DNA of 64,000 nt from Haliotis cracherodii (taxonomy: Eukaryota), in contig NW_027266264.1 of assembly GCF_022045235.1 (NCBI RefSeq), positions 35,898,001 to 35,962,000 on the forward strand. The letters run 5' to 3'. Positions 20,401 to 63,500 of the stretch are shown here, one piece after another. Position 1 is the first letter of the stretch. The number at the start of each line of letters is the position of its first letter. The notes under the pieces were generated by a model. It made no database searches. It had not been told where the DNA came from and saw only the letters and a list, made by a program, of their open reading frames with translations. Both the position numbers and the translations under genes were made by a program.

Positions 20401-23400
20401 CTTGTTGTCATACACTGTGTCATCAAACATGCGGTCCGAGGCTGATGCTGCTCCTGCACAACAACCAGTGACATAAATATTTAGTCTTTGTTTTTGTATC
20501 TAAAATAGTTTGACATCCTGATTTTTAAAAAGGGGGGTTCTACTAACCACAGGTGGAATTGCAAGTAAAAAGGGGTGGTAGAACCAAACACACACTCACA
20601 AACCCACCCTTCTAATGTACCCAACCCCTAAAAGCAAACACATAAAAGTAAGAAGGAATGTATGCATAGATCTAGCTACTTGTTCTAGTGTAACCATGGA
20701 ATTTTATTGTTATTGTCATTAAGCAATATATCACATGACTAACCACGAGTCCAGATAGTCCTGTGGGTACCCGGGTCCTACTCCAGACCCACCAGACCTG
20801 AGTAACCGGGCTGCACCCCTCATGGTTTATTCTCCCCGCAGTGTTTTATTGTATGGAAAGCAATGACCACTCATTGTTATTTTCAAACAGAGTCTCCTGT
20901 TATAATGTATAAGGAATATAGTCTCTCCTATCAGGGCATCATGGAATAACTGATGATGACAGCTGAGAAGTAACACAAGAAGCTGCTGCACCAACCTGTG
21001 TTGTCATACGTGGCGTCGCTCAGATCTATCAGCTGCCCCTCATGGGTCTCGGTATACAGACCATTCTCCTTGCGGTCTTTCAAAGACGCATACAGACCAA
21101 CCTGTACACAACAATTTATTCATTTCATTATAGTCAAACTACAAGTTGCTCAAACTGAGATTTAAACCTTTTTTTAAATCAATAATTGACTATACTTCTT
21201 GTTCTTACAGGATAATATCTGTTTAAATAGAAACGAATGTATCATAGATATCTTTCCAAATATATCCAAGCATGAAGTATTGTGCACTCACCGGTACATT
21301 GGTAGGAGACTTGTACTCTGGGACAGGGGGGACTTCGGGGATAGGGGGTGAGGGGGGACACGCCCCAGGGTGGTCATTGTAGTATTCCTCTTCATCACCC
21401 CATTTGCTGTTGTCAAAACTAGGATTCTCTTGCCTAAAAACATACAGCTCTGCTATCAAGCCAATTAACATTGCTATATCAAATCAGTTTCAGACATCTT
21501 ATTTCCCACTGTTTTCACATAAACTATAACTGGGATCTACTATTTTCCTGTTTATTATCAATGAAATGATCTCATTATTTCTGTCACCATATCTTCACCA
21601 CAGGCATTATGCCCATCGCACATCATCCTCATCAGTAACAGCGTCATCATCTTATCACAGGTCTCACCTGTCTGGCAGCCTGACAGCCTTAGGCTGCTTC
21701 TTGAGATACTGCTTGAAGCGGAGCTCGAAGGCTTGCCCGACTGTGGTGACCACGTCCTCCGCCAGTCCTCCCCCACACTCCAGCACATGACAAGCTCGGC
21801 CCTTCTGGGGATCCTTGGCAACGTAAGCCACAAAATCTAATGTTTCCTGTCAAAAAACAAACATGAACTCCATGATTGAACTCCATGGATCCCATTTAAC
21901 ATTTCATATAAGTTTAGATGAAAATCTAACAATGAATGTACTGGCCTTAGCAAATGCTTGCAACTTATAAGGTCAGCACAAATATTTAAATCTGAAACCG
22001 TGACTATTATTCTCATTTTAACAACCTTCATTACTAGACTCCCTGTGTCCCAAACATTCATCTTCATGCAAATCTTGAAGCAACTCTAATGTTTCACTGT
22101 CTGCAGTCACCTATCACCTTTAGGATTCAACACAATGATGCTCCTTTAAAGATTGTTCACATTACACATTTACATTTTTCTACTTACAGCATCCCCTCCT
22201 GAGGCAAACGACACAACCTGCATGGGGTGGTCAGCAATAATCTGTGGAGGGAAAAACAATGATGTATACAATATTTTTTAAATGAAACTCTCAATGAACT
22301 GAAAATTTTGCAAAATCATGTTTTATTGACAAAAAAATATTTGCAATGACCACCCACTCCCTGTTCTACAACATATACATACAACTTATGGTCATTCAAT
22401 ATTATAATAATGTCTAACAAATTCCCTTTCAGGCAAAGCATTAGTATTAGTAGTACTAGTAGTACTAGTAGTAGTAGTACTAGTAGTACTAGTAGTAGTA
22501 CTAGTAGTAGTAGTAGTAGTAGTAGTAGTCAGTTGTGGTCTGCAAACAAGAGACTTACCTCCCCTGATTCCATGACCATAAGATTAATGGATTCCACAGT
22601 GATGGTAAGATTGACATTAGATCCAGCATACTGCATGTACGGATTGTCGCCGATCATTTTCTGTATCTTCTTTTCTACCTAAAATACAACATGACCATTA
22701 ACTGTCATATATATATATGTGTCTTATACTGTCAAATAAACGTAACTCAAGCTTCACATTACAAATATCAATATTGGATAACATTTCTGAATTCAGTCAA
22801 TGAAAGATCTGATAAGAACTTTTATCTACTGTAATTTTCTTGAGGGAGACACAGGAAGACATATTCTTCTCAGGAAAGAATAAAAATAACCTTTCGTTTC
22901 TTCGACGCTGTTTTGAGTCCAGCTGCTTCTGTTACTTTGTTGATTGCTTCTCTGTAACAGAAGCCATATAATCTTGTCATAAACAATCATCCACCAGAAA
23001 TGATCATACAGAATCATTCAGTCATAGAAATGAATTTATACAGTTATGGACTTACCCAACATTTCCGAGGTCAGATTCTATTCAGGGAGTCACCATTATT
23101 TACATACAGGGTAGAATAAGTCTTCAGCAACCCATTCTTGCCATAGAAGGCGACTATGCTTGTCGTAAGAGGTGACTAACGGGATCGGGTGGTCAGGCTC
23201 GCTGACTTGGTTGAAGCATGTCATCGATCCAATTACATGGATTGATGCTCATGACATCAATCACTAGATTGTCTGGTCCAGGCTCAATTATTTTCAGACT
23301 GCCATCATATAGCTGGAATATTGCTGAGTGCAGAGTAAAACAACAAACAAACCAAACCAAACCAAAACATACGGGTAAACATATTTAAAGCATGTACATT

Positions 23401-43944: not shown

Positions 43945-46768
43945 CTATTCTGGCACATCTACAATCAGAGGACAGACGAACTCGGAATGTCGGATTCCAA
44001 GGGAATGGACAGCAGCCTTTGGTCGGTTGATGACAACTCTCTCTGGGCAATGAGCTCCAGGCCCTGGCTTCATCGTACTGTCCCCGGGCATGTAGCTGCG
44101 TCTCCTCAAGGAGTACAGGGGGGCCCTGTCCTTATAGAGGTCGGGGACGGTGGCATTGTAGTTGCCAGGTCCGGGGGCCTTGGCCATGTCATCCGCGTAG
44201 CCGCCGATCATCGACCGTGCCGTCATGGAGTAGCCGGGAGATGATTGCTTGTCCGGCTGGAATGCCCCCAGAACCTTTGGTAGGGTGTATTTGTTCGGGG
44301 CTGGGTTGCCATCACGTTTACGGTAGCGGGTCCGGGAACCGATGGAATGCTTAGGGGCATTTTTCTCCCCCTGTGGGTGAACCCGTTCCGGCATGTAAGC
44401 TCTTGGTGATGGAGTCTTGAACGTGCCTTTAATGTGAGAAAGCATTATTATTTAGTGATGCTTTACTTATGTTATCTTGCCATCAATACAATATAAATCA
44501 GTTTATTTCCCACGTCGACATTATTGTTATTATTGTTGTTATACATACCAAGATATGTCTGTCTGGCAAGCAGGGAATAGGCAGGGGTGCCGTCTCTACC
44601 CGACCTTGTTATGCTCGGGTCGATGAAATACGCCGGACCAGGACTGCATTCCTTCTTTGTGGCTGTAGAAACAGCACGTACAAAATTTATGACAAACAGT
44701 GGGTTGTTATAAAGTCACCCAGATACATAATATGATGTATAGTTCAGTTTAGAAAATTAAACAACATAATGACCTACACGTGCACAGGTTTTCCTTGTAT
44801 GAAACACCTTATTGCACGCAATTTTCCCTTGTTACACCTGCACACATGATCCACTTAATGAAGCTCCTATAATGTTCTTTAAAATGTGAAGTACATACTC
44901 ACTCACTCACTTTTGGTGAAATGTGAGCATAGAAATTACATGCATCCTTCAACACCGCTAGGATCCACTGGTCTAAGGGCCAGTGAGTTCGCAAAAGGTA
45001 TGGATTGAAATCCGTATTACCAGCTACAGATCTTCACCTGAGAGAATAATTTCACTGCAGGGGTTCATATTGGTAAAATTTGGCTGACTACTGTTTAACA
45101 CTCGCTCAGAACCATATGTCCAAATTACATAAAATCCTCGGCATTAAGGGGATAAAAAGGACTTGTCGACTCGAGTCTGGTATCTCAGTTGGCTAGCACT
45201 AGAAGTCTGGACTAGTACAAGCAGTCACACATTGACACGTGAATGCACGTCGCAAAACAAATGAACTTATCTTGAACGCAACGTTAGTCCCCATTTCACT
45301 CCACTTATTTTGTGGTAAGACCCGCACAAAATATGGATAGAGTGGTCAACGTGTTATTTGATGGAATGCGTCATTGTACCCCTGACAGCGTCCATCGAAG
45401 CTCATGCTATCAACCAATATACACATTCTCAGTTATAGAGGCGCCGAGTTGAAAACAAATATATATATCCAGGAACAGCAATCACAGAGACAGTGACATC
45501 AAAGTTATGAAAGGTAGGACCTATTGATAAATGCCACCCTCACAGTGGGATAAGAATCAACCCTCGTCTTCTGCTATGTTTCCGCTGCTCAAACTATATA
45601 TAAGACATAAAATGGCCCCAACTCCCCAATAACATAATAGTAGTCACCTGTTTATATCGACACTCCAAAAAGAAGATGAATGACTACCAACAGAATTAAG
45701 TGCAATTGGCCAAGTGGATTAGTAACACCCAATATAACTGCAATGATCTAATGATAATCTAATGCTGCAATAAAAACAAACTCTAGATTTCCTATCCGCA
45801 AAAGCACATCCCCTGTTCGAGTGAACAGCTGTTGTGTTCTGCATCGTCAGTAAATACGTGACACAAAAGCACATATTTGATATTTAATGTCAGTTACAAT
45901 CAAATGCAATCGTTTACGTATTTTGGCATGATCGGTAGCTCCGTGTAGAACATGTTAACGTGTAAATGTGTTTGATCCTGGACCGAGTAACATTAACTTA
46001 GTATTTTAACGGTAACTATGCCAACTAACCGAAGTCCCCGAGACGACGTCCAAACGAGTAGGCAGGTCTGGTATACTTTGTGAAGTCATGACCATTGAAT
46101 CCACACGTAGAAGGCAAGGCATAACGCCCAGGACCGGGACCTGTAGTAAATAGATATGTAATTAACACCTAAGTAACTATATGATATTCACGATTAATAT
46201 ATCCATATTTACGACGTGACTAAAACCATACATAACGAAACCTGAGTGAAATCGACAAGACATAAAATATAATATGCAGGATGCGTCTTCTTCATGTGAT
46301 TTGATAAAGCTGAACTCGTATTTCCACTGGTAGCTTAGACCAACATTTATACCCAGAAACGAAATTATATTATTTAAAAAAAATTATAAACAAACTACAA
46401 AATAAAACCCACATGAGTTCAGAACAAAGCTAAATTTTAGCCTAGAGCTGAGTCAATCTCAGCTTGCCAAATCAATCTAAACTTTTGTTGGATTATTTTA
46501 TTAATTTTTTCTCTAATGTCTGGTAGCAGTACATGGTTTTTTTCACAAATTAAGGGGTATGCCGGATGCCTGGAGGTAGCAAGTTGGCACCTCAGTAGAG
46601 GTGAGATTAAGGTGCAGGCTGTTGCTCCCCGTAGAGACGCGATAAACTGGACTTACTGATAATGACACTGAGTGCTAAAGTTCTAAGTATATAAAACAGG
46701 TATTAAATTCACTCACCCCTCTGTCTAGCAGCAATGGGGATATTCTTCTTACTCTTGACAGACTGCAT
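43945..46768 (-). CDS. ODF3: Outer dense fiber protein 3 / CIMAP1-like (SHIPPO PGP-repeat protein)
   Basis: Exons 46768-46717, 46140-46030, 44662-44549, 44426-43945, in phase. PIAARQRGPGPGRYALPSTCGFNGHDFTK..PAYSFG, SPGPAY, PAPNKY, PGPGNY, GDSTMKPGPGAH, C-terminal SLGIRHSEF. Confidence 0.9.
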
Positions 46769-48669: not shown

Positions 48670-51600
48670 CAATCAATCAATCAATCTTTATTTCAAGTAC
48701 TGAAAAGGCCATAGGCCTATAGTACATATATACATACAGTAGCAATGGGTGCAATAGGAATTACATATATCGTAACAAAATATCACATCTATAATGCAGA
48801 GGATCTGATGTTCATTGCATGATATCTATACATTGAAAGATATTTTGTGACTGTTTCATTTTGGGATGACATGAGGATATAAAATTTGTCTATTCTAGGA
48901 TTCAGATAAAAATAGTTATGTATGTATTCTTTTCTGATATTTGCATACAATGGACAGACTAGCAAAAAATGGTATTCATCTTCTATCTCTTTGCAAGTAC
49001 AATATTTACACAATCTGTTTTCCCTTGGTATCGCTAAATGTCTACCTTTTTCTATTAGAAGGTCATGAGAACCACATCTGAAACGGGATAGTGCTGTTCG
49101 GAATTTCTTAACATTTATATCCAAAAGATATTTTTCGGTCAGAATGAATGATTTAAAACAGGTGTAATGCTTTAACTTATTATGTAAGTTTAGTGAAGAG
49201 TACCACTTTTGAAAATACATATCTTTTAGCCTTTGTCTTAAATTATATATGAAACGATCTGGTACTGTTACATGTTGCTCTCTCCAAATGTACTCATACC
49301 CGCAAGATTGGAGTATCTTTTTGACACCCGAGGCCCAGTTATTTTTACCTCTGCTATCGTAAAGAATCATCATGTTATAGCATTTCTTTGGGAATCTGGT
49401 ATTTGGCATTTTAAGCAATTTTATCCAATATTTTATTACTTTTATGTAACTGAATATATACATTGGGTATCTCCCACATTCCCCGTAAACTGTAACATTT
49501 GGAGTGTTGGAATTTACTCCTAAAAATCTTTTATACGCAGATAGATGTACCTTCTCTATTGTATCATAGTTCTCTAGGCCCCAGACCTCAGCACCATAGA
49601 GTAAAATAGGACTGATCTTAGTGTCGAAAATCTTAGAGAATGTTTCAAAGCTAATATTTCCAAGGGGTTTTAGGTTTTGTAAAATGCCAATTAAAATCTT
49701 TTTGGCTTGTAGTGCGGCTTTGTTGCAATGCAGTGACCAAGTAAGTCGATTTGTAAAATGTACCCCCAAATATTTGTAACTTCTTACAACCTCAAGTTTT
49801 TCACCTTTGTATAGCCATTTTTCTCGTTTTGATAATTTCCCTCCATTTTTGAAAACTACAACCTTTGTCTTATCGATATTGACCTTCAATTTCCATTTGT
49901 TACAATAATACTCAAGTTCATTTATTAACTTTTGAAGTCCAGATACTGTGCTCGAGAACATAACTATATCATCAGCAAAAAGGAGTAGGAAAAGTTTAAT
50001 AGTTTCTGGATGGAGTTGGATACCCTCGTTACAATTTTCAGATATTTGTATCGAAAGTTCATTTATGAAAAGTGAAAACAGGAATGGACTTAGAATACAT
50101 CCTTGTCTAACCCCAGTATTACAGTAGAAGGAATCAGATAAGGTGTTATTGTTTCGAACACAGACCTTCACATTGTGATATATACAACATAGTAATTTAC
50201 CAATTTTACTACTGATACCTTGAGATTTGCAAAGGGACCACAACATGTTTCTGTTAATTGAGTCAAACGCCTTAGCAAAATCAACAAATATAGCATACAT
50301 TTTTTCTCCTTTTCGTGCTAAATATCTCTGTACAAGTGTCTGCAATACAAATACATTATCAATTGTAGAGTATCCATGCCTGAAACCGGCTTGTGCTTCA
50401 TTTATCTTATTAAAGGAATCTGTCCAAAATACTAAACGTTTGTGTATAATACTGGTAAAAATCTTACTGAAAACACTCAAAAGAGTTATACCCCTATAGT
50501 TATTGGTGACATTAGTTGATCCCTGTTTGTGCAAAGGAATTACTATCCCCAGAGTCCACTGTTCTGGAAAATAAGTCTTTTCAAGCATAACGTTAAAAAG
50601 AATTTCAAGGTAGGGGAGGAGAATATCGGACGAATATTTAAAAAATTCAGGAATCAAATTATCTTCACCAGCTGCTTTATTGCTTTTTAAGTTTGCAATG
50701 CTTTCTGAAATTTCATTTCTTGTTATAGGTGAATCAAGAATATCTGAAGTTAACTGACAAAAAGAGTTATCAAATACATTCCATTCGTCGATATCAAAAC
50801 ATCTTTCCTCGTTCTCTGTAGAAGTTGAAAACAGATCCCTGAAATAGTTAAACCAATCATCAATTGGAATATTGTTTTGTGTATAACGATTAGTGTTTAG
50901 CCCTTTAAGAGTGGCCCAAAATTGTTTAGAGTCGCGCATACAATGTTCAAGTTTTTCCTGTTTCTCTTTGAAAAAATTCGTTTTCTTTTCTCTGCATACA
51001 CTATTATATTTATTTCTAATATAATTATACTCATATAATGAGTTATTATCCTTTTTTCTTCTAAAATTGTTTAAATATTTACATCTTTCCTTTTTGAGTA
51101 GCTCACATTCACGGTCAAACCACTGTTGACTAAATGTGTTAGAAGTACACACTCTTTTCATGTCGCTTGCTGCCGTGCACAAGGCCTCTGACATGTATCT
51201 AACACTTTCGTCTATATTGTGTAACACTTCGTCAACAGCCTTTTCTAATAAAGAGTAGCATTCACTGCTCAACAAGTTATACATAAATTGGTCAGCTTTA
51301 TCATTGACCCAAACGAATTTGGAAGCCTTCTTATTACCATGAGCTTGCACGGGTTTAGTCTGCACAGAAGTATATAAGCTCGCCATGACAGGAAGATGAC
51401 AGGATTCCGTGCGTGATACAATGGTGAAATTACAGCATACGTCAAACAACCCAGATGAACAGATTATGTAATCTATGACGCTAGCACCTTGATGGCCAAT
51501 AAACGTATAGTCCCCAACTTCTGAGTCTGACCCACATCTTCCATTCAAGATATGTATATTTAAGATACTGCATAAATTTATCAAACTTTTTCCAAAGTTG

Positions 51601-52375
51601 TTTAACACATTATCTGCTGACGCTCGTACCATGTTAAAATGGTCGAGTAGAAAACTATACACGGAAGAATTATCATTTTCTAAATATTCAAGAATATCAT
51701 CTTCAACAAAATCCGGCTCAGTACCTGTGCGTGCATTGAAATCTCCACCTAACATAATATAATAGTTGCCGCAGTGAGAAAGAACATCTAGTAGCTCCTC
51801 CTGCAACAATAGCACACCGTTACTACAATCAGGTGATAACGCACTGTACCAGCGTGACGATTCTGGGTGAATATACACACATGAGTACACTACATCCTTA
51901 TCTATATTAAACATGGTTTTGTCTAATAACACAAATATTCCACTTTTACGGATTTTTGTCCATTTCACAAAATTCTCATACCTTTTTCTTATAAGAAGTA
52001 CTATTCCACCTGAAAGGCGGCCGAAGTCAGATATTTTTTCTCCATGTTTTGTTATAACCTTAAAATCTGGAAATATGGATAGTAAGTCAATATCTTTGGA
52101 CCAGGATTCTGTCAATCCAATGATGTCGCATTTACATATAAAGCTTACAAAGTCACGATCCTGTAATTTAGCCATCAGCCCTGATACATTCCAAAATAAA
52201 AATTGTACATCCTTGTTGATAGTTCTGTGGGGTACACTTGTTTGAAGCACCCGTAAATTGACATGGCCCTGGCCACACCCCTATCTCACAGCCTTCCGAC
52301 CAGGGGTCTATGTTTCCGGGTATATGGTCCGGGTAAACAGGATTCCACTGGAGGTGGAGTATTTATTGAAACTTG
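48670..52375 (-). mobile_element. Non-LTR retrotransposon (APE-RT LINE, RTEX/CR1-like), probably 5'-truncated just upstream of ORF2
   Basis: Intact ORF2, short 3'UTR with a stem-loop (48697-48725), AATAAA and a (GATT)4 tail at 48670-48686. The 5' boundary is approximate and no TSD was found. Clade assignment is tentative. Confidence 0.85.
48789..52250 (-). CDS. LINE ORF2: AP endonuclease + reverse transcriptase + C-terminal Cys/His motif
   Basis: 1153-aa open frame: WNVSGL, LTESW, GGDFNART, SVIDYI, NYRGITL, QAGFR, FVDFAKAFDS, GVRQGCILSP, LFADD, YKYLG, CKYC..EDEYHFLLVC. Confidence 0.95.
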   Translation of the reverse strand: MLQTSVPHRTINKDVQFLFWNVSGLMAKLQDRDFVSFICKCDIIGLTESWSKDIDLLSIFPDFKVITKHGEKISDFGRLSGGIVLLIRKRYENFVKWTKIRKSGIFVLLDKTMFNIDKDVVYSCVYIHPESSRWYSALSPDCSNGVLLLQEELLDVLSHCGNYYIMLGGDFNARTGTEPDFVEDDILEYLENDNSSVYSFLLDHFNMVRASADNVLNNFGKSLINLCSILNIHILNGRCGSDSEVGDYTFIGHQGASVIDYIICSSGLFDVCCNFTIVSRTESCHLPVMASLYTSVQTKPVQAHGNKKASKFVWVNDKADQFMYNLLSSECYSLLEKAVDEVLHNIDESVRYMSEALCTAASDMKRVCTSNTFSQQWFDRECELLKKERCKYLNNFRRKKDNNSLYEYNYIRNKYNSVCREKKTNFFKEKQEKLEHCMRDSKQFWATLKGLNTNRYTQNNIPIDDWFNYFRDLFSTSTENEERCFDIDEWNVFDNSFCQLTSDILDSPITRNEISESIANLKSNKAAGEDNLIPEFFKYSSDILLPYLEILFNVMLEKTYFPEQWTLGIVIPLHKQGSTNVTNNYRGITLLSVFSKIFTSIIHKRLVFWTDSFNKINEAQAGFRHGYSTIDNVFVLQTLVQRYLARKGEKMYAIFVDFAKAFDSINRNMLWSLCKSQGISSKIGKLLCCIYHNVKVCVRNNNTLSDSFYCNTGVRQGCILSPFLFSLFINELSIQISENCNEGIQLHPETIKLFLLLFADDIVMFSSTVSGLQKLINELEYYCNKWKLKVNIDKTKVVVFKNGGKLSKREKWLYKGEKLEVVRSYKYLGVHFTNRLTWSLHCNKAALQAKKILIGILQNLKPLGNISFETFSKIFDTKISPILLYGAEVWGLENYDTIEKVHLSAYKRFLGVNSNTPNVTVYGECGRYPMYIFSYIKVIKYWIKLLKMPNTRFPKKCYNMMILYDSRGKNNWASGVKKILQSCGYEYIWREQHVTVPDRFIYNLRQRLKDMYFQKWYSSLNLHNKLKHYTCFKSFILTEKYLLDINVKKFRTALSRFRCGSHDLLIEKGRHLAIPRENRLCKYCTCKEIEDEYHFLLVCPLYANIRKEYIHNYFYLNPRIDKFYILMSSQNETVTKYLSMYRYHAMNIRSSAL

Positions 52376-53985: not shown

Positions 53986-54832
53986 GTATATTTATATATG
54001 TTGTTTGAATGAATCTATTTTGTGTATAAATTGTTTGTTCTTGTACAGTATGTTGAGTGTTCATTCTGTTCTACAGACATTTATACTTATAGTAAAAGAC
54101 TACATGTCTATCTTTTCTATCTACCATATATAATTTTGGAAATTTTGCCCTAATTCATTTTTGTTTTGTCTTGTTTTTCTCTTAGTCTATGAAGACATTT
54201 GCAACATTTGATTTGAATTACATGTGTATCTAAAAGTTAAAAAACGCCCAGAATCCAAACCTCCGGGCCTATTTGGATGGAACATTTTGAGTTGGGTGAT
54301 TAGTAGCACAAATAATAAATAGGAAAAGATAGTTTTGTTCTGATATGAATATTGAAGTCTTTCAGGGGAATTTAACTAAAATGAGGGCATTTGTCTTTAG
54401 ATTTCGAGCTAAGCTGTATCAGTGAACATGGTTTGTGCCCATTATGATTTGTGATAGTTTGTCCAAAAGAGCTGTGTCAGCTACCTAGAACTTTCTTGCG
54501 GGAATGGAATATCTGTTTCGTTATCCGTTATTGGCTCTCTTAATTTGCCGTTGTTTGATATTTCACATTATGATTAGCTGTGACACGTTATTTCACAAGT
54601 ATCTTGTTGTAGTGAATTATCAAATATATTACACATTTTCTGTGAATTGTCTTTTTTTTACTCTTGAACCGTCATTATTTGTTTTCCCGTTTGTTTACCT
54701 CATAACCAGGAATACTAGTATAGAGTAAACTTAGGAAACAGTTGCCTACAATGCATGTGATGATCTGTCTGACAGGTTGTTACCGAGTTTACATGTTATA
54801 ATAATATGAGATGTGGTCCTAGTTTATACATG

Positions 54833-55674
54833 TATCATGGTTAACATTTATACTAAGTTATCTTATAATAATTAGATCTACATCAAGTGCTTTTATGAGT
54901 TATCATGGTGTAATATTTATACACCATTGCATATAATTATAGTTTAGCAAGTAATAATTATCATCAGGTAAAATGCATATATAAAATATCAGTAGTTTCA
55001 GTTACAGCTTTTTAGATGGTTGCTAGACTAAGGTATCAAGATCCCATCTCCCAGACAAAGGATATTTATTTAAGTATATCTGTCATCACCTACCGGGGTA
55101 TATTAGAATAACATTACTTCAATTAAGACTCATTAAGGATTAGCCCCGTACAAGCTCGTCTATAGTGCATTAAGGATTAGCCCCCATACAAGCTCGTCTA
55201 TAGGGCATTAAGGATTAGCCCCACACAAGCTCATCTATAGTGACACCCTAATCTCTTTCAAGCATCCAGTAAATATGTCAACAAGATTAGTGCCAGTCCA
55301 ACAGGATTAACAGGATTTAGTATTCCCCTCTGTCCAGCCATCCATTTAGCATAGGACACAACCAATCGTGTATCAACCAATCACATTCCTTTCTATTGTT
55401 CAAACTTTCATTAAATACGTACTGTAGCCAAGTTCTAGCAGAGAAGGGGTTTGACTCTCTTACCAAGCAGACCTCTCTCCCACAGCCCAGAGTGTGTACC
55501 GACTCTCTGTGGCACCCTCAGTTATTATCTAAGCATAAATTGTAAATTGTTAAATGTTCTTGTAAATAAAATTGTGATTAGTCTCCTGTGACTCTGGCTC
55601 TTTGCTGACTAATTCCCCAAGAAAACCAGCACGTCATTTGGAAGGTATTGTTCACCTAGAACAGTTCCATGATA
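54833..55674 (+). repeat. 5' LTR (842 bp)
   Basis: Direct repeat of 62355-63196 with no difference seen by eye. TATCATGG...CCATGATA ends, two CCAAT boxes, AATAAA at ~55565. Confidence 0.95.
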
Positions 55675-55945
55675 ATTTGGCGGAGAATCATCGTTTTCGG
55701 AACCACGGAGTCCAGGAACTACCTACAACCAGCTACAAGAACCCATTGGAGGACATGTCCAACCGTGATCATCTGATGGAATAACAAGCAAGCTGCATCT
55801 ACCTCTGACCTCAACACTGGATTAAAGACAACCAACTCCTGCAAAGACACCAACAACGAAAGAAAAAGTCTTCAAATATTGTAAGTACTACATTGTTGAT
55901 TACTTGTCTTCCTTTAATTTAGTACGGTACATACTAATAGGTGTC

Positions 55946-58900
55946 ATGGCAAATATGGAGTCTGGTATGGAAAGTAACTTCGAAAGTGAAATTCCAACAG
56001 TGTCTTTAGTTACGCCCCTTGCCAAAAGTGTAATTCAGGCAAAATTTGGCACAAAAACAACAAATTGTTTAGTAGATACAGGGGCATCCATTTCTTGTAT
56101 TTCGTCTGCTTTTCTGAGCACAGCTTTTGAAAACCTTACTCTTGGAAACTCACCCTTTCCACAGGTTAAAGGTGTTGGCGGCGAATTGCATAAAGTGTTA
56201 GGTTCAGTTGTGTTAGATTTTGTCATTGAGGATCAGGAATTTTCTCAAAGATTCTATGTTCTGCCTACACTACCAGAAGCAGTGATACTAGGTGAGAACT
56301 TCCTTGATGACAATGATGCAGTCTTAGATTATAGCTGTCATTCCTTGATACTTAACAACAGCACCTCAGATAGGCAATATATCAATTTCATAGCCAATTC
56401 AGTGCAAGAGATTAGTGGATTAGCAAAAACAATAGATCAGATTTACATCCCCCCTCAGAGTGAAATTCATTTCAAGGTTAGACTATCAGAGGTCAAAGAG
56501 GATTCCCTCATCCTGATTGAACCCATTGCTTCCCTCACTGCTCATTCTGAAGTAGCAGGTGGTAGAACTCTTTCCAAAGTGAAAAGCAAAACTGCTACCT
56601 TTAGGCTTATGAATCCCTCCCAAGAAGAAAAAGTTCTTGACAAGGGTACAGTTGTAGGCAAATTTAGTTACATTGACAAAGACTCTGTTTTTGAAATCGG
56701 CTCTGACCAACCATTCATCAGTACCGTTAACACCGACAATGAGAAGAGAGACAATGACACCAGGGATTATGTTAAAATTGCACAAGAATTAGGATTTGAT
56801 TTGACCAATACACAACTGACTCCAGACCAACGACACAGACTACTTAGATTCTTGGGACAAAATAGAGACATGTTTTCAACAAGTCTTGCAGATTTAGGAA
56901 AGACTGACATGCACCAACATATCATTGACACTGGCGACCACCCACCCGTTAAGTGTAGACCATATCGCCAATCTCCTCATCTCCAAAAAGTCACTGAAGA
57001 ACTTATAGATGATTTTCTGAAGTATGATTTAATCGAGGAGTCTACTTCTATGTATTCAGCTCCCATTATCCTAGTCAAGAAACGCGATGGCTCATATAGA
57101 TTTGTTTGTGACTACAGAAAGTTGAATTCTGTCACTTTACCGATGTCATGGCCTCTTCCTGTTTTTGATGATGTTGTTGATAACATAGCCAATGCACAAG
57201 CTAAGATCTTCTCAACTTTAGACCTTGCTAATGGCTTCTTCCAAGTGCCATTACATGAAGATTCAAAGCATAAAACTGCTTTCGTCACCCATCAAGGCCT
57301 TTATCAATTCAAACGTTTGCCCCAAGGTTTGACAAATTCTCCACTTTGTTTTCAACAGCTCATGAGCAAAGTGCTAAGAAAATTACTTTTTAAGGTTGCG
57401 CTGATCTACATTGATGATTTGATAATTTACAGCAAAAACTTTGAAGAGCATCTCCAGCATTTGGAGCAAGTATTTTACTATCTGAAACAGGCAAAATTGA
57501 CACTAAGGCCATCCAAATGCAATTTTGCAACAGACAAAGTTTCTTTTCTGGGTCATGTTTTATCATGTGGAGGTGTTCAAGTTGATGACAAAAAGATTGA
57601 AGCAATTAGAACCTTTCCAGTGCCCAAATCACAAAAGCAGATCCGCTCCTTCTTAGGTCTCACGAACTTCTACAGGAAGTATGTGAAAAATTACGCTCAC
57701 ATAGCGCTTCCACTGAATGCCTTGCTAAAGAAGCATTCAGAGGCAGAAGTAGGAAAGAAACCAAAGTTCCAATGGTCACTTGAGTGTGATCAGGCATTCA
57801 ACACACTCAAACATGCTATGAGTAATACACCTGTTCTGGCTTATCCAAATTTTGACAAAGAATTTCTTCTCGCAACTGATGCCAGCGATATGAGCATAGG
57901 TTTTGTTTTGAGTCAAAAAGACGAGAAAAATAATGAACATCCAATAGCTTTTGGTGGTAGAGCTCTACATGGCAGCGAAAAGAACTGGAGCATTACAGAA
58001 AAGGAAGGCTTAGCTCTAGTTGAAGCCATTAGATCCTTTCGTCCATACCTTGCAAATTCCAAATTCACAGTCTACACTGATCATATAGCATTGAAATGGC
58101 TGAAATCAATCAAGGATGCCACAGGTAGGTTAGGGCGATGGTCTTTGGAACTTTCTACCTACACTTTTGACATTGTTCACCGCAGCGGCAAAGCCAATGG
58201 GAATGCCGATGCTCTCTCACGTAGGGAATACGAGGAAAATATTAACTGTAATGATCAGACAGAAGAAGATGCTGAGAAAACAGTCTTCTCAGTAACTTCA
58301 ACTCAGCAAAGCAAATCAACTAGCAATACCACAATCTTGCCAAACACCCATTCATCCACACGGGTCACACAGACAACTCAGACTGAGGATATTTGCACAC
58401 CTATTGTCAATCACTTAGAATCAGACACACAGACAACACATTGGTCAGTCACCTTTGAATATGAAGAGGATTATCAGTCAGTACCAGTTAATGTTGTTGC
58501 AGCATTACATGCTACAAATGCTGATGTTACCCAAGACACATTGGTTGAAGTAAGTATAAAAGAACATCCAAATTTACGTCACCTACAAAGGATTTGTCCA
58601 GATTTCATCCAAATCTTTGACTACAAAGAGGATGATGTCCTTCCACAAAATGAAAAGGATCGTCAAAAGATTCTTATTGAAGCCAATACTTTTGAAATTG
58701 ATGAAGGCATCCTATACAGATTTGTTCCACAAAGACAGAAAGGCCATGCAGACAAGTTCATTAAACAGCTGGCAGTCCCAAGAACCCTCAGAAATCAAGT
58801 CCTGCAATCCTATCATGACTCAGAGTTTGGCGGTTGCCACCATGGGAAAGAAAGGATGCACAACACCATGAGACCTAAGTACTACTGGCCCAAAATGTAC

Positions 58901-61129
58901 AGCGAGATTGCTACTTATGTCCAGACATGTGAGGTATGTCAACAGACCAAGAGGCACTACCATGCTAAGAAGGCACCACTTCGTCCACTACCTGTAGAAG
59001 AGGTCTTCACCCGATGGCACGTTGACATTCTCGGTCCCCTGCCAACAACACCAGATAAGTACAAGTACATTTTGGTTATCACAGATGCATCATCCAGATG
59101 GTGTGAAGCCTTCCCACTTCGGACCCAAGAAGCCAAAGAAGTAGCAGATGTTCTCGTCAGAGAAATATTTTGTCGGTATGGCGCACCTAGGACCTTAATT
59201 TCAGACAGAGGTCAGAACTTCATGTCCAAACTTATCAAAGCAATTTGTGAACTTTTGGCAATTAAATTTACCCATACCAGCCCATACCATCCTCAAACAA
59301 ACAGCTGTGTAGAAAGGCTCAATTCCTATATCAATCAGTCACTAAGAGCCTATTGTAACAAGTCTCAAAATGATTGGCCCCGTTTTATTCCTGGCATCAT
59401 GATGGCCTATCGGATGGCCCCAAATTCATCAACACAAAAATCCCCATATGTCATGCTTTTTGGCCGAGAAATGAGAGCTCCACAAGATGTAGCATTAATT
59501 CCAAAAGAAAATTTAGGCCACAATAACAAAAGTTATCTTTCCAATTTGCTTGAGGAGCTTGAAATCACTAGAACAATCGCAGCTGAAAACACTGCTCGGG
59601 CTAAGGAGGTGTATTCAGAACAATATAATAGAAAAGCTAAAGAACCAGAATTCGCCCCAGGTCAAAGAGTTTGGCTTTACTGTCAAAAAGTTGAAAAAGG
59701 CCTTTCCAACAAATTAACCAAAAAGTGGTATGGTAGCTATTATATCGTCCATACAGGTCCAAATTATACCTACAAACTACGCCGAAGTTCTGACGACAAA
59801 ATACACAAACCACTGGTCCATGCCAACCGTCTGAAGCCATATTTTGATCCTGCTGATCGTCCACAGTATCCTCCAGAACCATACCTCAATAACCCCAGTG
59901 ACATAGATTCAGGAGTCATGGATGACAACGAGGAACCAGTCAATGATACTCAGATTGACACCAACAATTCCCCATCAACAAGTTCAACTTACCAGGCTAC
60001 TGATCAATCACCTCCACAACAGAAAGGTAAGAAGGTCAATTCCAAAACAAAGGCAGGTACTTCCAGCAACAAGAGTCCGAAGCAAAAGACCCCAACAAAG
60101 AAGAAAAACCCTGCTTCAACTTCAAGTACAACAGAAAAACCTACCAGTCCCACGGCAACAATGAAGGAAAATCATGCCACACCAGGTCCTAGTGCTCCAA
60201 CCAAGGTAAATGAAAAGGTAAACAAAGGGAAAAGGGGAGTGAATAGTAAGCATCACCAGCCCAAATCCAGAAAACAACCCGACGACAGCCAGGTACAACC
60301 TCCAAGTCCAACATCAGGTAATCAAACCAAGGATATCCCTCAAGTCTTCAATCCAGAGGACATCCACTCAATTGTTAGTTCCAAGAGAGCAAATGGCAAA
60401 ATGTACTACAGAGTAAAATGGAAGGATCCAGAAAGAGGAAACACATGGGAGTATGGCAGCAGCATTCCAGACTCCATTCGGAGAGAATTTCACCTCAAAA
60501 GAAGTATGTCAGGAAAACGACGAAAACGTCCACTGAAGAATCATAAGTTTTTCGACCAAAAGGAAACAGCACAAGACAATAAATCAGTCAATGTTCTGTC
60601 AGGTAATTCAATGTCAGGGAATGTCCAGCAAGTCAACACCAAACCATGCATAGAATTAGATGTCAAACCATATCTGTTTTTTCCAAAACACCTACGAAAA
60701 ATAGATCATAAAATAGAAAGAGTTCTGGGCATTGAAATTATTCAAGGAGACTGCTATGTCAAGGTCTTATATAAAGGATTTCCTGATACTGACTTCACAT
60801 GCTATTTTGAAAGTGTTCCTCCCCACCTCATACAGCGCTACCTTGATGATAGCTGGGAGGATCTCCGTAATTGGTCCTGTCTAGAAGATAATCCTCGATA
60901 TGATCCAGAGGAAGCACCAATTTATAAATCCAAAAGGGTTATTTTTCCACATGAAGACTTTGGAAACATCAACACCTTTTACTACCGTATTTCACTCACA
61001 GACATTAGTCCCCATGGACCATACCAGGATCAACTCGCCGTACATACCGAACAATGCCAATTGAACATATTCTTGATCAAAATACAAAATCTCCTGAATA
61101 AACGGTGCAAATCACGAAACAACTATTAG
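55946..61129 (+). CDS. Gypsy Pol: protease - RT - RNase H - integrase - chromo-like domains
   Basis: First ATG at 55946. LVDTGA, YRFVCDYRKLN, YIDD, ATDAS..TDH..ADALSR, H..H..CEVC, VDI..SDRG..VERLN, and YYRVKWKD..NTWE. Confidence 0.95.
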   Translation: MANMESGMESNFESEIPTVSLVTPLAKSVIQAKFGTKTTNCLVDTGASISCISSAFLSTAFENLTLGNSPFPQVKGVGGELHKVLGSVVLDFVIEDQEFSQRFYVLPTLPEAVILGENFLDDNDAVLDYSCHSLILNNSTSDRQYINFIANSVQEISGLAKTIDQIYIPPQSEIHFKVRLSEVKEDSLILIEPIASLTAHSEVAGGRTLSKVKSKTATFRLMNPSQEEKVLDKGTVVGKFSYIDKDSVFEIGSDQPFISTVNTDNEKRDNDTRDYVKIAQELGFDLTNTQLTPDQRHRLLRFLGQNRDMFSTSLADLGKTDMHQHIIDTGDHPPVKCRPYRQSPHLQKVTEELIDDFLKYDLIEESTSMYSAPIILVKKRDGSYRFVCDYRKLNSVTLPMSWPLPVFDDVVDNIANAQAKIFSTLDLANGFFQVPLHEDSKHKTAFVTHQGLYQFKRLPQGLTNSPLCFQQLMSKVLRKLLFKVALIYIDDLIIYSKNFEEHLQHLEQVFYYLKQAKLTLRPSKCNFATDKVSFLGHVLSCGGVQVDDKKIEAIRTFPVPKSQKQIRSFLGLTNFYRKYVKNYAHIALPLNALLKKHSEAEVGKKPKFQWSLECDQAFNTLKHAMSNTPVLAYPNFDKEFLLATDASDMSIGFVLSQKDEKNNEHPIAFGGRALHGSEKNWSITEKEGLALVEAIRSFRPYLANSKFTVYTDHIALKWLKSIKDATGRLGRWSLELSTYTFDIVHRSGKANGNADALSRREYEENINCNDQTEEDAEKTVFSVTSTQQSKSTSNTTILPNTHSSTRVTQTTQTEDICTPIVNHLESDTQTTHWSVTFEYEEDYQSVPVNVVAALHATNADVTQDTLVEVSIKEHPNLRHLQRICPDFIQIFDYKEDDVLPQNEKDRQKILIEANTFEIDEGILYRFVPQRQKGHADKFIKQLAVPRTLRNQVLQSYHDSEFGGCHHGKERMHNTMRPKYYWPKMYSEIATYVQTCEVCQQTKRHYHAKKAPLRPLPVEEVFTRWHVDILGPLPTTPDKYKYILVITDASSRWCEAFPLRTQEAKEVADVLVREIFCRYGAPRTLISDRGQNFMSKLIKAICELLAIKFTHTSPYHPQTNSCVERLNSYINQSLRAYCNKSQNDWPRFIPGIMMAYRMAPNSSTQKSPYVMLFGREMRAPQDVALIPKENLGHNNKSYLSNLLEELEITRTIAAENTARAKEVYSEQYNRKAKEPEFAPGQRVWLYCQKVEKGLSNKLTKKWYGSYYIVHTGPNYTYKLRRSSDDKIHKPLVHANRLKPYFDPADRPQYPPEPYLNNPSDIDSGVMDDNEEPVNDTQIDTNNSPSTSSTYQATDQSPPQQKGKKVNSKTKAGTSSNKSPKQKTPTKKKNPASTSSTTEKPTSPTATMKENHATPGPSAPTKVNEKVNKGKRGVNSKHHQPKSRKQPDDSQVQPPSPTSGNQTKDIPQVFNPEDIHSIVSSKRANGKMYYRVKWKDPERGNTWEYGSSIPDSIRREFHLKRSMSGKRRKRPLKNHKFFDQKETAQDNKSVNVLSGNSMSGNVQQVNTKPCIELDVKPYLFFPKHLRKIDHKIERVLGIEIIQGDCYVKVLYKGFPDTDFTCYFESVPPHLIQRYLDDSWEDLRNWSCLEDNPRYDPEEAPIYKSKRVIFPHEDFGNINTFYYRISLTDISPHGPYQDQLAVHTEQCQLNIFLIKIQNLLNKRCKSRNNY

Positions 61130-61264
61130 CTGTATCTTGTTATGTTTACTTGTGTCCAGTCTTTTCACTATGGGTTGCCAGTTGAGAACAAATGGCATCA
61201 GCCTGATCATCTGAGTTATTTGTATCACAGCAAATTTTGAGCATTGACCTGATCAACCAATCTC

Positions 61265-61700
61265 AAAAGCGAAGTGAAATGACACAAAGCAAACCATACT
61301 GCGAATTGAAACCCAAACCGCACCGAAGCGAAGCAAACCATACTGCGAATCGAAACCCAAACCGCACCGAAGCGAAGCAAACCATACTGTGAATCGAAAT
61401 CCAAACCGCACCGAAGCGAAGCAAACCGTACTGCGAATCGAAACCCAAACCGCACCGAAGCGAAGCGACCATACTACGAATCGAACCCAAACCATACCGA
61501 AGCGAACCTAAACCGTACCGAAGTGAAATGGCACAAACCAAACAATACTGGGAATCGAACCCAAACCGTACCGAAGCGAACCCAAACCGTACCGAAGCAA
61601 AATAAACCAAACCATATCGCATTGAACCGAAGGAAAATCAAAGCGAAACAAACCAAACTCAAATAAAGAAAACTTAACAACCGAAATGAACCAAAACAAA
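61265..61700 (+). repeat. ~42-bp A/C-rich tandem array inside the Gypsy 3' non-coding region
   Basis: Unit gaaacccaaaccgcaccgaagcgaagcaaaccatactgcgaatc-like, decaying to the right. Confidence 0.85.
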
Positions 61701-62354
61701 GAAAAGGCAAACCAAATAGTTACGAAAACTAACAATGATATACACCTTTTGTATACCGTATTAATGTAACAAATCAATGCACTTGTTATATGCACATGCA
61801 CATATATGTATATATAATGCGTCTAATGATTGTATCCAAAAATAGAAGGATATTACTATTTTTCTCATGATATACTTTTGTAATTTGCCGCCAATACATT
61901 CTTCCTGGCCATGACACCGTTTAGTAATAATTATGTACTGATCTTTTACATCATAATTATCATATTTGTTTTATTTTCTAGTTAATACAGACAAACTGAG
62001 GAAGTATTTATATATGACATATTATTTGAACATGCTAACTCTCTTTTCTTTGTTTCCATGTAAAACCTCCATGGACACAGCCTACTATCTTGCAACCCCA
62101 ATCCAGGATGTGGAACTCAAGGCCTCCTACATCACCCATAAAACCACCAGTACAGAGTGCCAAGACAAGCCAGCTCCACATCCAGATTCCCTGATGACAG
62201 CATTTTTATATCATGTTTCCTTATATCAAAGAGACGCTATAATAATTGTTATTTACTATACTACCAGTTTAACTTAATACATTGTCCATCTAAGCCATAA
62301 TTATTTTAATTTTTACACGTTTGGGGTCCAAACTTTTTCAGACGGAGGGGAAGT

Positions 62355-63196
62355 TATCATGGTTAACATTTATACTAAGTTATCTTATAATAATTAGATC
62401 TACATCAAGTGCTTTTATGAGTTATCATGGTGTAATATTTATACACCATTGCATATAATTATAGTTTAGCAAGTAATAATTATCATCAGGTAAAATGCAT
62501 ATATAAAATATCAGTAGTTTCAGTTACAGCTTTTTAGATGGTTGCTAGACTAAGGTATCAAGATCCCATCTCCCAGACAAAGGATATTTATTTAAGTATA
62601 TCTGTCATCACCTACCGGGGTATATTAGAATAACATTACTTCAATTAAGACTCATTAAGGATTAGCCCCGTACAAGCTCGTCTATAGTGCATTAAGGATT
62701 AGCCCCCATACAAGCTCGTCTATAGGGCATTAAGGATTAGCCCCACACAAGCTCATCTATAGTGACACCCTAATCTCTTTCAAGCATCCAGTAAATATGT
62801 CAACAAGATTAGTGCCAGTCCAACAGGATTAACAGGATTTAGTATTCCCCTCTGTCCAGCCATCCATTTAGCATAGGACACAACCAATCGTGTATCAACC
62901 AATCACATTCCTTTCTATTGTTCAAACTTTCATTAAATACGTACTGTAGCCAAGTTCTAGCAGAGAAGGGGTTTGACTCTCTTACCAAGCAGACCTCTCT
63001 CCCACAGCCCAGAGTGTGTACCGACTCTCTGTGGCACCCTCAGTTATTATCTAAGCATAAATTGTAAATTGTTAAATGTTCTTGTAAATAAAATTGTGAT
63101 TAGTCTCCTGTGACTCTGGCTCTTTGCTGACTAATTCCCCAAGAAAACCAGCACGTCATTTGGAAGGTATTGTTCACCTAGAACAGTTCCATGATA
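62355..63196 (+). repeat. 3' LTR (842 bp)
   Basis: Same length and apparently same sequence as the 5' LTR. Confidence 0.95.
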
Positions 63197-63249
63197 CATG
63201 CAACAACGTAAACTTGACAATGATATGGTTTAAATCACTATCAGATTGG

Positions 63250-63500
63250 ACCCGTGAAGATCCGGGGTAGAACAGGTCTTTAGCAACCCATGGTTGCCGT
63301 AAAAGGCGACTGCTTGTTGCAAGAGGTGACTAACGGAATTGAGTGGTCAGACTTGGTTGATGCATGTCATTGATCTCAATTGCGGGGATCGATGTTCATG
63401 ATGTCAGTCATTGGATTGTCTGGTCCAGCTTTGATTATTTACAGACCTCTGTCACATACCTGGAATATTGCTGAGTGTGGCATAAACAACAAACAAACAC
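63250..63500 (+). mobile_element. Short interspersed repeat, family of 23108-23367
   Basis: Colinear, with an (AAAC)n tail. Confidence 0.7.

Follow-up and report, generated by a model that had tools for sequence, protein, structure and literature searches.

An LTR retrotransposon with TA...TA termini was identified in the window, the whole stretch of 64,000 nucleotides that was analysed. The element is probably best described as a recently inserted Ty3/gypsy element without gag, having TA...TA ends, at most a weak target bias and a likely trimming of short spacers from its cDNA. The TA...TA ends of the integrated copy were taken as real with high confidence. The coordinates of the features are summarized in Table 1.

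Table 1. Features of the element and its surroundings (positions in the window)
Feature	Position	Strand	Remarks
ODF3-like host gene, four exons	43945-46768	-	90-100% identical per exon to Haliotis rufescens protein
Non-LTR retrotransposon ORF, uninterrupted	48789-52280	-	1163 aa; endonuclease and RT domains
Left target-site duplication CATG	54829..54832	.	flank contigs from two runs stop matching at 54832
5' LTR	54833..55674	+	842 bp; start TATCATGG, end CCATGATA
Degenerate internal duplicate of LTR start, including AGT spacer	54898..54923	+	AGTTATCATGG plus about 15 similar bases
Three tandem units of 37-38 bp in 5' LTR	55131-55242
Motifs within 5' LTR			TATATAA at LTR position 146; AATAAA at 733
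Spacer ATT between U5 end and PBS	55675..55677	+	3 nt; missing from integrated right end
PBS TGGCGGAGAATC, tRNA-Ala-like type	55678..55689	+	exact complement of tRNA 3' end listed as 'others' (PMC13524379 supplement 1)
Possible leader intron, 60 nt	55881..55940	+	GTAAGT ... CTAAT AG/G, just 5' of pol ATG; motif prediction only
pol ORF, uninterrupted	55946..61129	+	1727 aa; without gag; domains protease, RT, RNase H and integrase (HHCC and core, SH3 weak), putative chromodomain-like tail
44-bp tandem array, 3' non-coding region	61243..61640	+
Polypurine tract (PPT) AGACGGAGGGGAAG	62340..62353	+	downstream of T-run
AGT adjoining 3' LTR start	62352..62354	+	missing from integrated left end
3' LTR	62355..63196	+	842 bp; 100% identical to 5' LTR (exact direct repeat)
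Right target-site duplication CATG	63197..63200	.	read from sequence
Dispersed repeat	63265-63498		65 bp right of insertion; other copy 23109-23352; 79% identity between the two

The LTR ends TATCATGG and CCATGATA form a perfect 8-bp inverted repeat, for which the chance is about 2e-5 (eight given positions, window composition). With the boundary marked by a slash, the outer junctions read ...TTTATACATG/TATC on the left and GATA/CATGCAAC on the right. The inner junctions read ...GGAGGGGAAGT/TATC (also written GGGGAAGT/TATC) on the PPT side and GATA/ATT-TGGCGGAGAATC (GATA/ATT-TGGCGG) on the PBS side. Nine boundary placements were tried (0-4 nt outward, 1-4 nt inward) and only TA...TA gave identical LTRs together with a duplication of at least 4 bp; a 4-bp duplication is expected to match by chance at about 0.005. 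No further LTR copy was found within the 64,000-nt window beyond the two of the element itself. A preliminary description had proposed TA...TA termini on which a CATG duplication imitates TG...CA, and this was borne out by the boundary test as well as by the reads and contigs given below. The inverted repeat which it noted was confirmed on the exact 842-bp repeat of both LTRs, as were CATG on the outer sides and AGT/TA and TA/ATT-TGG at the inner junctions. The second AGTTATCATGG, placed about 65 bp inside the LTR, is present at 54898 and 62420 (LTR position 66).

Other copies were analysed by mapping four of the 18 listed public runs (X1, X7, X16 and X17; X2-X6, X8-X15 and X18 were left out) to positions 54500-56700 of the window. 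The raw runs showed zero depth on the left flank and a depth from tens to more than 100 on the LTR, and the family is therefore multi-copy; these runs are odd in that 98-99% of the reads were partly mapped with a strong C>T/G>A excess. At 54833, the clipped reads of X16 (12) have as their majority line the PPT junction of the window copy itself (agreement 0.56), and at 55674, 24 reads of X17 were clipped. A variant subfamily, represented by 24 contigs of X1 and 20 of X7, deviates around LTR positions 8-10 and keeps the TA start; the tandem units within the LTR vary between copies. Single-copy flank contigs from X1 (depth 21) and X7 (depth 20), two runs with different species labels, match the window through 54832; the next 39 and 33 letters, known only by their disagreement with the LTR, lie beyond. 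This is consistent with the expected empty site having one CATG. The flank evidence is made of majority lines among the matches listed and not of single junctions, so it would also accommodate a pile at 54829.

The majority letters flanking other insertions were CAAC on the right (X17, 24 reads), AAAC on the left (X1, 24 contigs) and ATAC on the left (X7, 20 contigs), with flank-pile agreement as low as 0.44-0.63. The right-hand pile drops flanks starting with A by alignment, and the loci of X1 and X7 may overlap, which would make these two sets non-independent. The earlier claim of CATG-specific integration is not supported by these data, as A and C hold the majority at +3/+4, and again at -2/-1 in the two further sets. 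In simulation, 24 independent flanks at 40% CATG lost both T (+3) and G (+4) with p=0.004, and sampling of 8 loci at 50% CATG gave p=0.04. The element is thus likely not targeted to CATG. The top letter beside the element was C in all three flank sets, at a chance of about 0.1 each for the 38% GC window, and target motifs are palindromic on average according to the available part of PMC3276498; a weak preference for C/G at both site ends is therefore suggested. The bias would be at most a weak one of the form (C/G)WW(C/G).

TA...TA ends with no sequence preference at all, where CATG and the C-rich majorities would have come up at random, would fit the low agreement of the flanks, the A instead of C/G at position -4 in both contig sets and the 475 occurrences of CATG in the window. 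The same reading gains from the possibility that X1 and X7 have old loci in common and are hence not independent. It is nevertheless unlikely, as it leaves the recurrence of C at the element-adjacent position in every set to coincidence.

An errantivirus-like cDNA AGTTA...TAATT, trimmed by exactly 3 nt and integrated specifically at CATG, was also considered. The inner 5+5 bases of the element equal the Zam-clade motif AGTTA...TAAYT (PMC3601003, in the part available), and insect errantiviruses (gypsy, ZAM, Idefix) are described as pairing such ends with palindromic 4-bp targets (available parts of PMC5408687 and PMC3276498). CATG in the window copy is palindromic as well, and the right-flank majority of X17 starts with CA, as would also be expected if CATG were partly preferred. 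However, integrated errantiviruses still carry AGT/AnT at their ends and use the fixed palindromic targets TATA, CGCG or ATAT, as far as described in PMC5408687, PMC3601003 and PMC3276498. The outer ends of the element are without AGT and ATT, its target is CATG here with mixed flanks elsewhere, and similar spacers occur in CA-ended relatives. Errantiviruses also have gag and usually env (PMC5408687, available part), whereas the element has neither. Together with the flank majorities and simulations above, this renders the model very improbable. The suggestion of errantivirus-like AGT...ATT ends is weakly supported.

The canonical TG...CA reading, with the duplication absent or mutated (TACA/TGCA) and the inner junctions altered, is largely refuted and has hardly any probability left, because TG and CA at the outer junctions of the window copy and the CA start of the X17 right majority are outweighed by the four mismatches which this placement (2 bases outward) costs in otherwise identical LTRs, the loss of the duplication, the same PPT junction in other copies, the letters A and C in place of T and G before the LTR (24 and 20 contigs), and empty-site contigs matching through 54832 and not 54830.

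The order protease-RT-RNase H-integrase of the element is that of Ty3/gypsy (Metaviridae), and the two LTRs, PBS, PPT and 4-bp duplication agree with this group, where duplications are 4-6 bp; its usual, non-universal TG...CA termini are not those of the element. The best PDB match was Ty3 Gag-Pol (E=1e-36). The matches after the integrase core were weak, with SH3_Tf2-1 at E=0.017 and Chromo at E=0.022, both below the curated cut-off, and the Atlas chromo matches of the pol tail scored 0.88, which is a lead only. The tRNA ends of the ATTCTCCA type are labelled Ala in supplement 1 of PMC13524379 (available part), and PBS-like sites of the tRNA-Ala-like type were also found in close relatives. 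No tRNA gene was found within the window. No significant hairpin was detected at the U5/PBS junction (z=0.57), and there is therefore no sign of self-priming.

The pol of the element opens at its own ATG. A profile built from the gags of related loci detected no gag in six frames of the element, and the same profile recovered 4/4 held-out gags (E<=1e-51); env was likewise absent on ORF reading. The distance from the PBS to the pol ATG is 268 nt in the element as compared to 909-1748 nt from the PBS to protease in 8/8 relatives. The element is filed as a non-autonomous Ty3/gypsy derivative, since an autonomous member carries gag. The leader and pol showed similar read depth. The closest relative with DNA, L001 (1-330), has 330 AT-rich, stop-filled nt before pol without gag signal, and all four controls of similar length scored. 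The N-terminal Met peptide of pol is common to the proteins P0001 (66% identical overall) and P0340; the P0001 contig of 6763 bp against 6680 bp for the internal region of the element is suggestive only. Among 127 proteins examined, 88 had a readable motif, and 41 of these share a Met that lies 55-58 residues ahead of the protease Asp; this Met was rejected as proof of gag loss because the gag-bearing L015 carries such a Met too.

The gag-pol junction was compared in 21 related loci. Gag and pol were in frame across one stop in 11 of them (9 TAG, 2 TGA), overlapped in different frames in 3, were separated by a 243-nt gap in 1, and 4 were without a long upstream ORF; the protease motif was not readable in the other 2. 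The pattern suggests that stop-codon readthrough may be the usual mode of gag-pol expression in the marine clade. Single in-frame TAG/TGA stops between gag and pol were noted in L002, L003, L006, L007, L011, L012, L015, L016, L018, L081 and L084. A separate 798-aa ORF with hydrophobic N-terminus lies between pol and LTR in L084 (975-3368) and is a candidate env-like gene.

The scans gave 79 + 26 = 105 related loci. The close loci are collapsed contigs whose termini were read from inner junctions only; none of them showed both LTRs with both flanks, hence no duplication is readable for the clade. TG...CA ends were found in L015, L016, L084, L031, L035 and L043, and the CA end only in L018, L072 and L074. 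L081 (1540-2275) is likely TA...CA, L006 (690-720, 7886-7925) has a TA start with an ambiguous right end, and the termini of L003 and L005 are ambiguous. L081 and L006 are possible intermediates toward TA ends. In 10 CA-ended relatives, 1-4 nt separate CA from the PBS (AAT in L081, TCT in L035), and L084 and L035 have AAT/TG on the PPT side. By this comparison, AGT and ATT resemble ordinary spacers of the clade rather than errantivirus ends. As a control, 14 distant long-read elements were checked, and five of them were clear TG...CA with 5-bp duplications.

The named pol relatives belong to Mytilus, Pinctada and Haliotis with 50-56% identity in integrase, and the closest protein to the element was P0001 with 88% identity in that domain. 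A quick integrase tree of 50 rows, with no gypsy, ZAM or Idefix among them, grouped the window firmly only with P0001 (support 100); the wider group of 38 rows, which mixes end types, reached 85, and the tree is weakly supported. The loop-helix Pro214-Gly218 of foamy virus integrase (PFV) inserts at the DNA end, as described in the available part of PMC6784120. The element has Ser at the position equivalent to Gly218. A residue special to TA ends was rejected here, as the change of Gly to Ser/Ala is clade-wide and Ser is also present in the CA-ended L016, L072 and L084. At most, this Ser may mark a permissive clade. Exact patterns of the LTR ends gave no match in metagenome contigs or viral contigs, and scanning the viral contigs at the protein level yielded no confirmed relative. 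Two bacterial bins labelled Sedimenticola (L080-L087) hold several animal gypsy contigs and are likely contaminated by host DNA; a search of both for the L081 LTR returned L081 itself only.

In the proposed mechanism, the integrase of the element likely joins a TA-3' end in place of CA-3'. The AGT and ATT spacers would be copied into cDNA and then removed by 3'-processing. The tRNA's last base may be retained in cDNA. Trimming on the PBS side would accordingly be 3 nt, or 4 if that base is retained, and on the PPT side 1-4 nt as set by the RNase H cut. Removal of two or three nucleotides is known for integrases (PMC6784120, available part). A staggered 4-bp cleavage with a probable weak (C/G)-(A/T)-(A/T)-(C/G) bias would follow, CATG being one such weakly preferred site that by coincidence mimics TG...CA. 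The TA ends may have arisen within a mostly TG...CA marine-invertebrate clade when TG was replaced by TA at each end of the LTR, possibly by way of a TA...CA stage like the one likely in L081. Translation of Pol would begin at its own ATG, and Gag would presumably be supplied in trans by a related element that is primed by the same tRNA; no helper element supplying Gag was found. Foamy viruses express Pol separately. A further reading, quite unlikely as a whole, is a long-lived pol-only gypsy lineage of molluscs with Pol from its own ATG, possibly a spliced RNA, and borrowed Gag. It could thereby have evolved a private pair of TA end and integrase, and its unprocessed ends AGTTA...TAATT match those of insect errantiviruses. 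If true, such a lineage would be a living model for the origin of errantivirus ends from an element with TA ends in which trimming was later lost.

The element was compared with known systems. Reports of TA...TA or TA...CA ends concern Copia elements of plants (AtRE1, TARE1, lotus TATA group), where members with differing ends, canonical included, cluster together (10.1101/137141, PMC9804982, in the parts available). The terminal dinucleotides of the plant TA...TA Copia are the same as those of the element, but the integrase of the element lies after RNase H in the gypsy order and not upstream of RT; the element further differs by its animal host, long LTR, 4-bp duplication and absence of gag. 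The element shares host groups, a tRNA-Ala-type PBS and possibly the chromodomain-like pol tail with the chromodomain Ty3/gypsy elements known from molluscs, annelids and cnidarians (PMC13524379, available part), and the 12 nt of its PBS are identical in one Platynereis element of the supplement. Those elements were chosen for gag-pol-env, whereas the present one is without gag and env, and the available part of that source holds nothing on LTR ends or target sites. Troyka elements resemble it as marine-invertebrate LTR elements with non-TG...CA ends that occur in abalones (PMC12440569, available part). They are described there with CG...CG ends, 3-bp duplications, LTRs of 100-400 bp and mostly a Gag-Pol protein, in contrast to TA...TA, 4 bp and an 842-bp LTR here. 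No report of TA...TA ends in animal gypsy was found in the open-access literature (Repbase being outside this scope), nor, among the papers listed, any mention of a lacking gag; the available parts of PMC6238403, PMC10886601 and 10.1101/2021.07.27.453949 contain nothing on TA...TA termini.

For retroviral integrases, PMC6784120 (available part) calls the CA-3' end invariant. A young animal gypsy with intact pol and TA ends, standing near TG...CA and likely TA...CA relatives, offers a natural series on the relaxing of end recognition. LTR finders demanding TGCA would miss this multi-copy family or, where the target is CATG, place its termini 2 bp off. Non-canonical LTR ends as such are already known and a striking sequence-specific targeting is not supported; the pol-only architecture is maybe a more interesting lead than the termini.

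The ODF3-like host gene, whose match to the Haliotis rufescens protein makes an abalone the likely host, has the element about 8 kb upstream. The surrounding DNA also holds the uninterrupted ORF of a non-LTR retrotransposon to the left and a dispersed repeat to the right of the insertion (Table 1).
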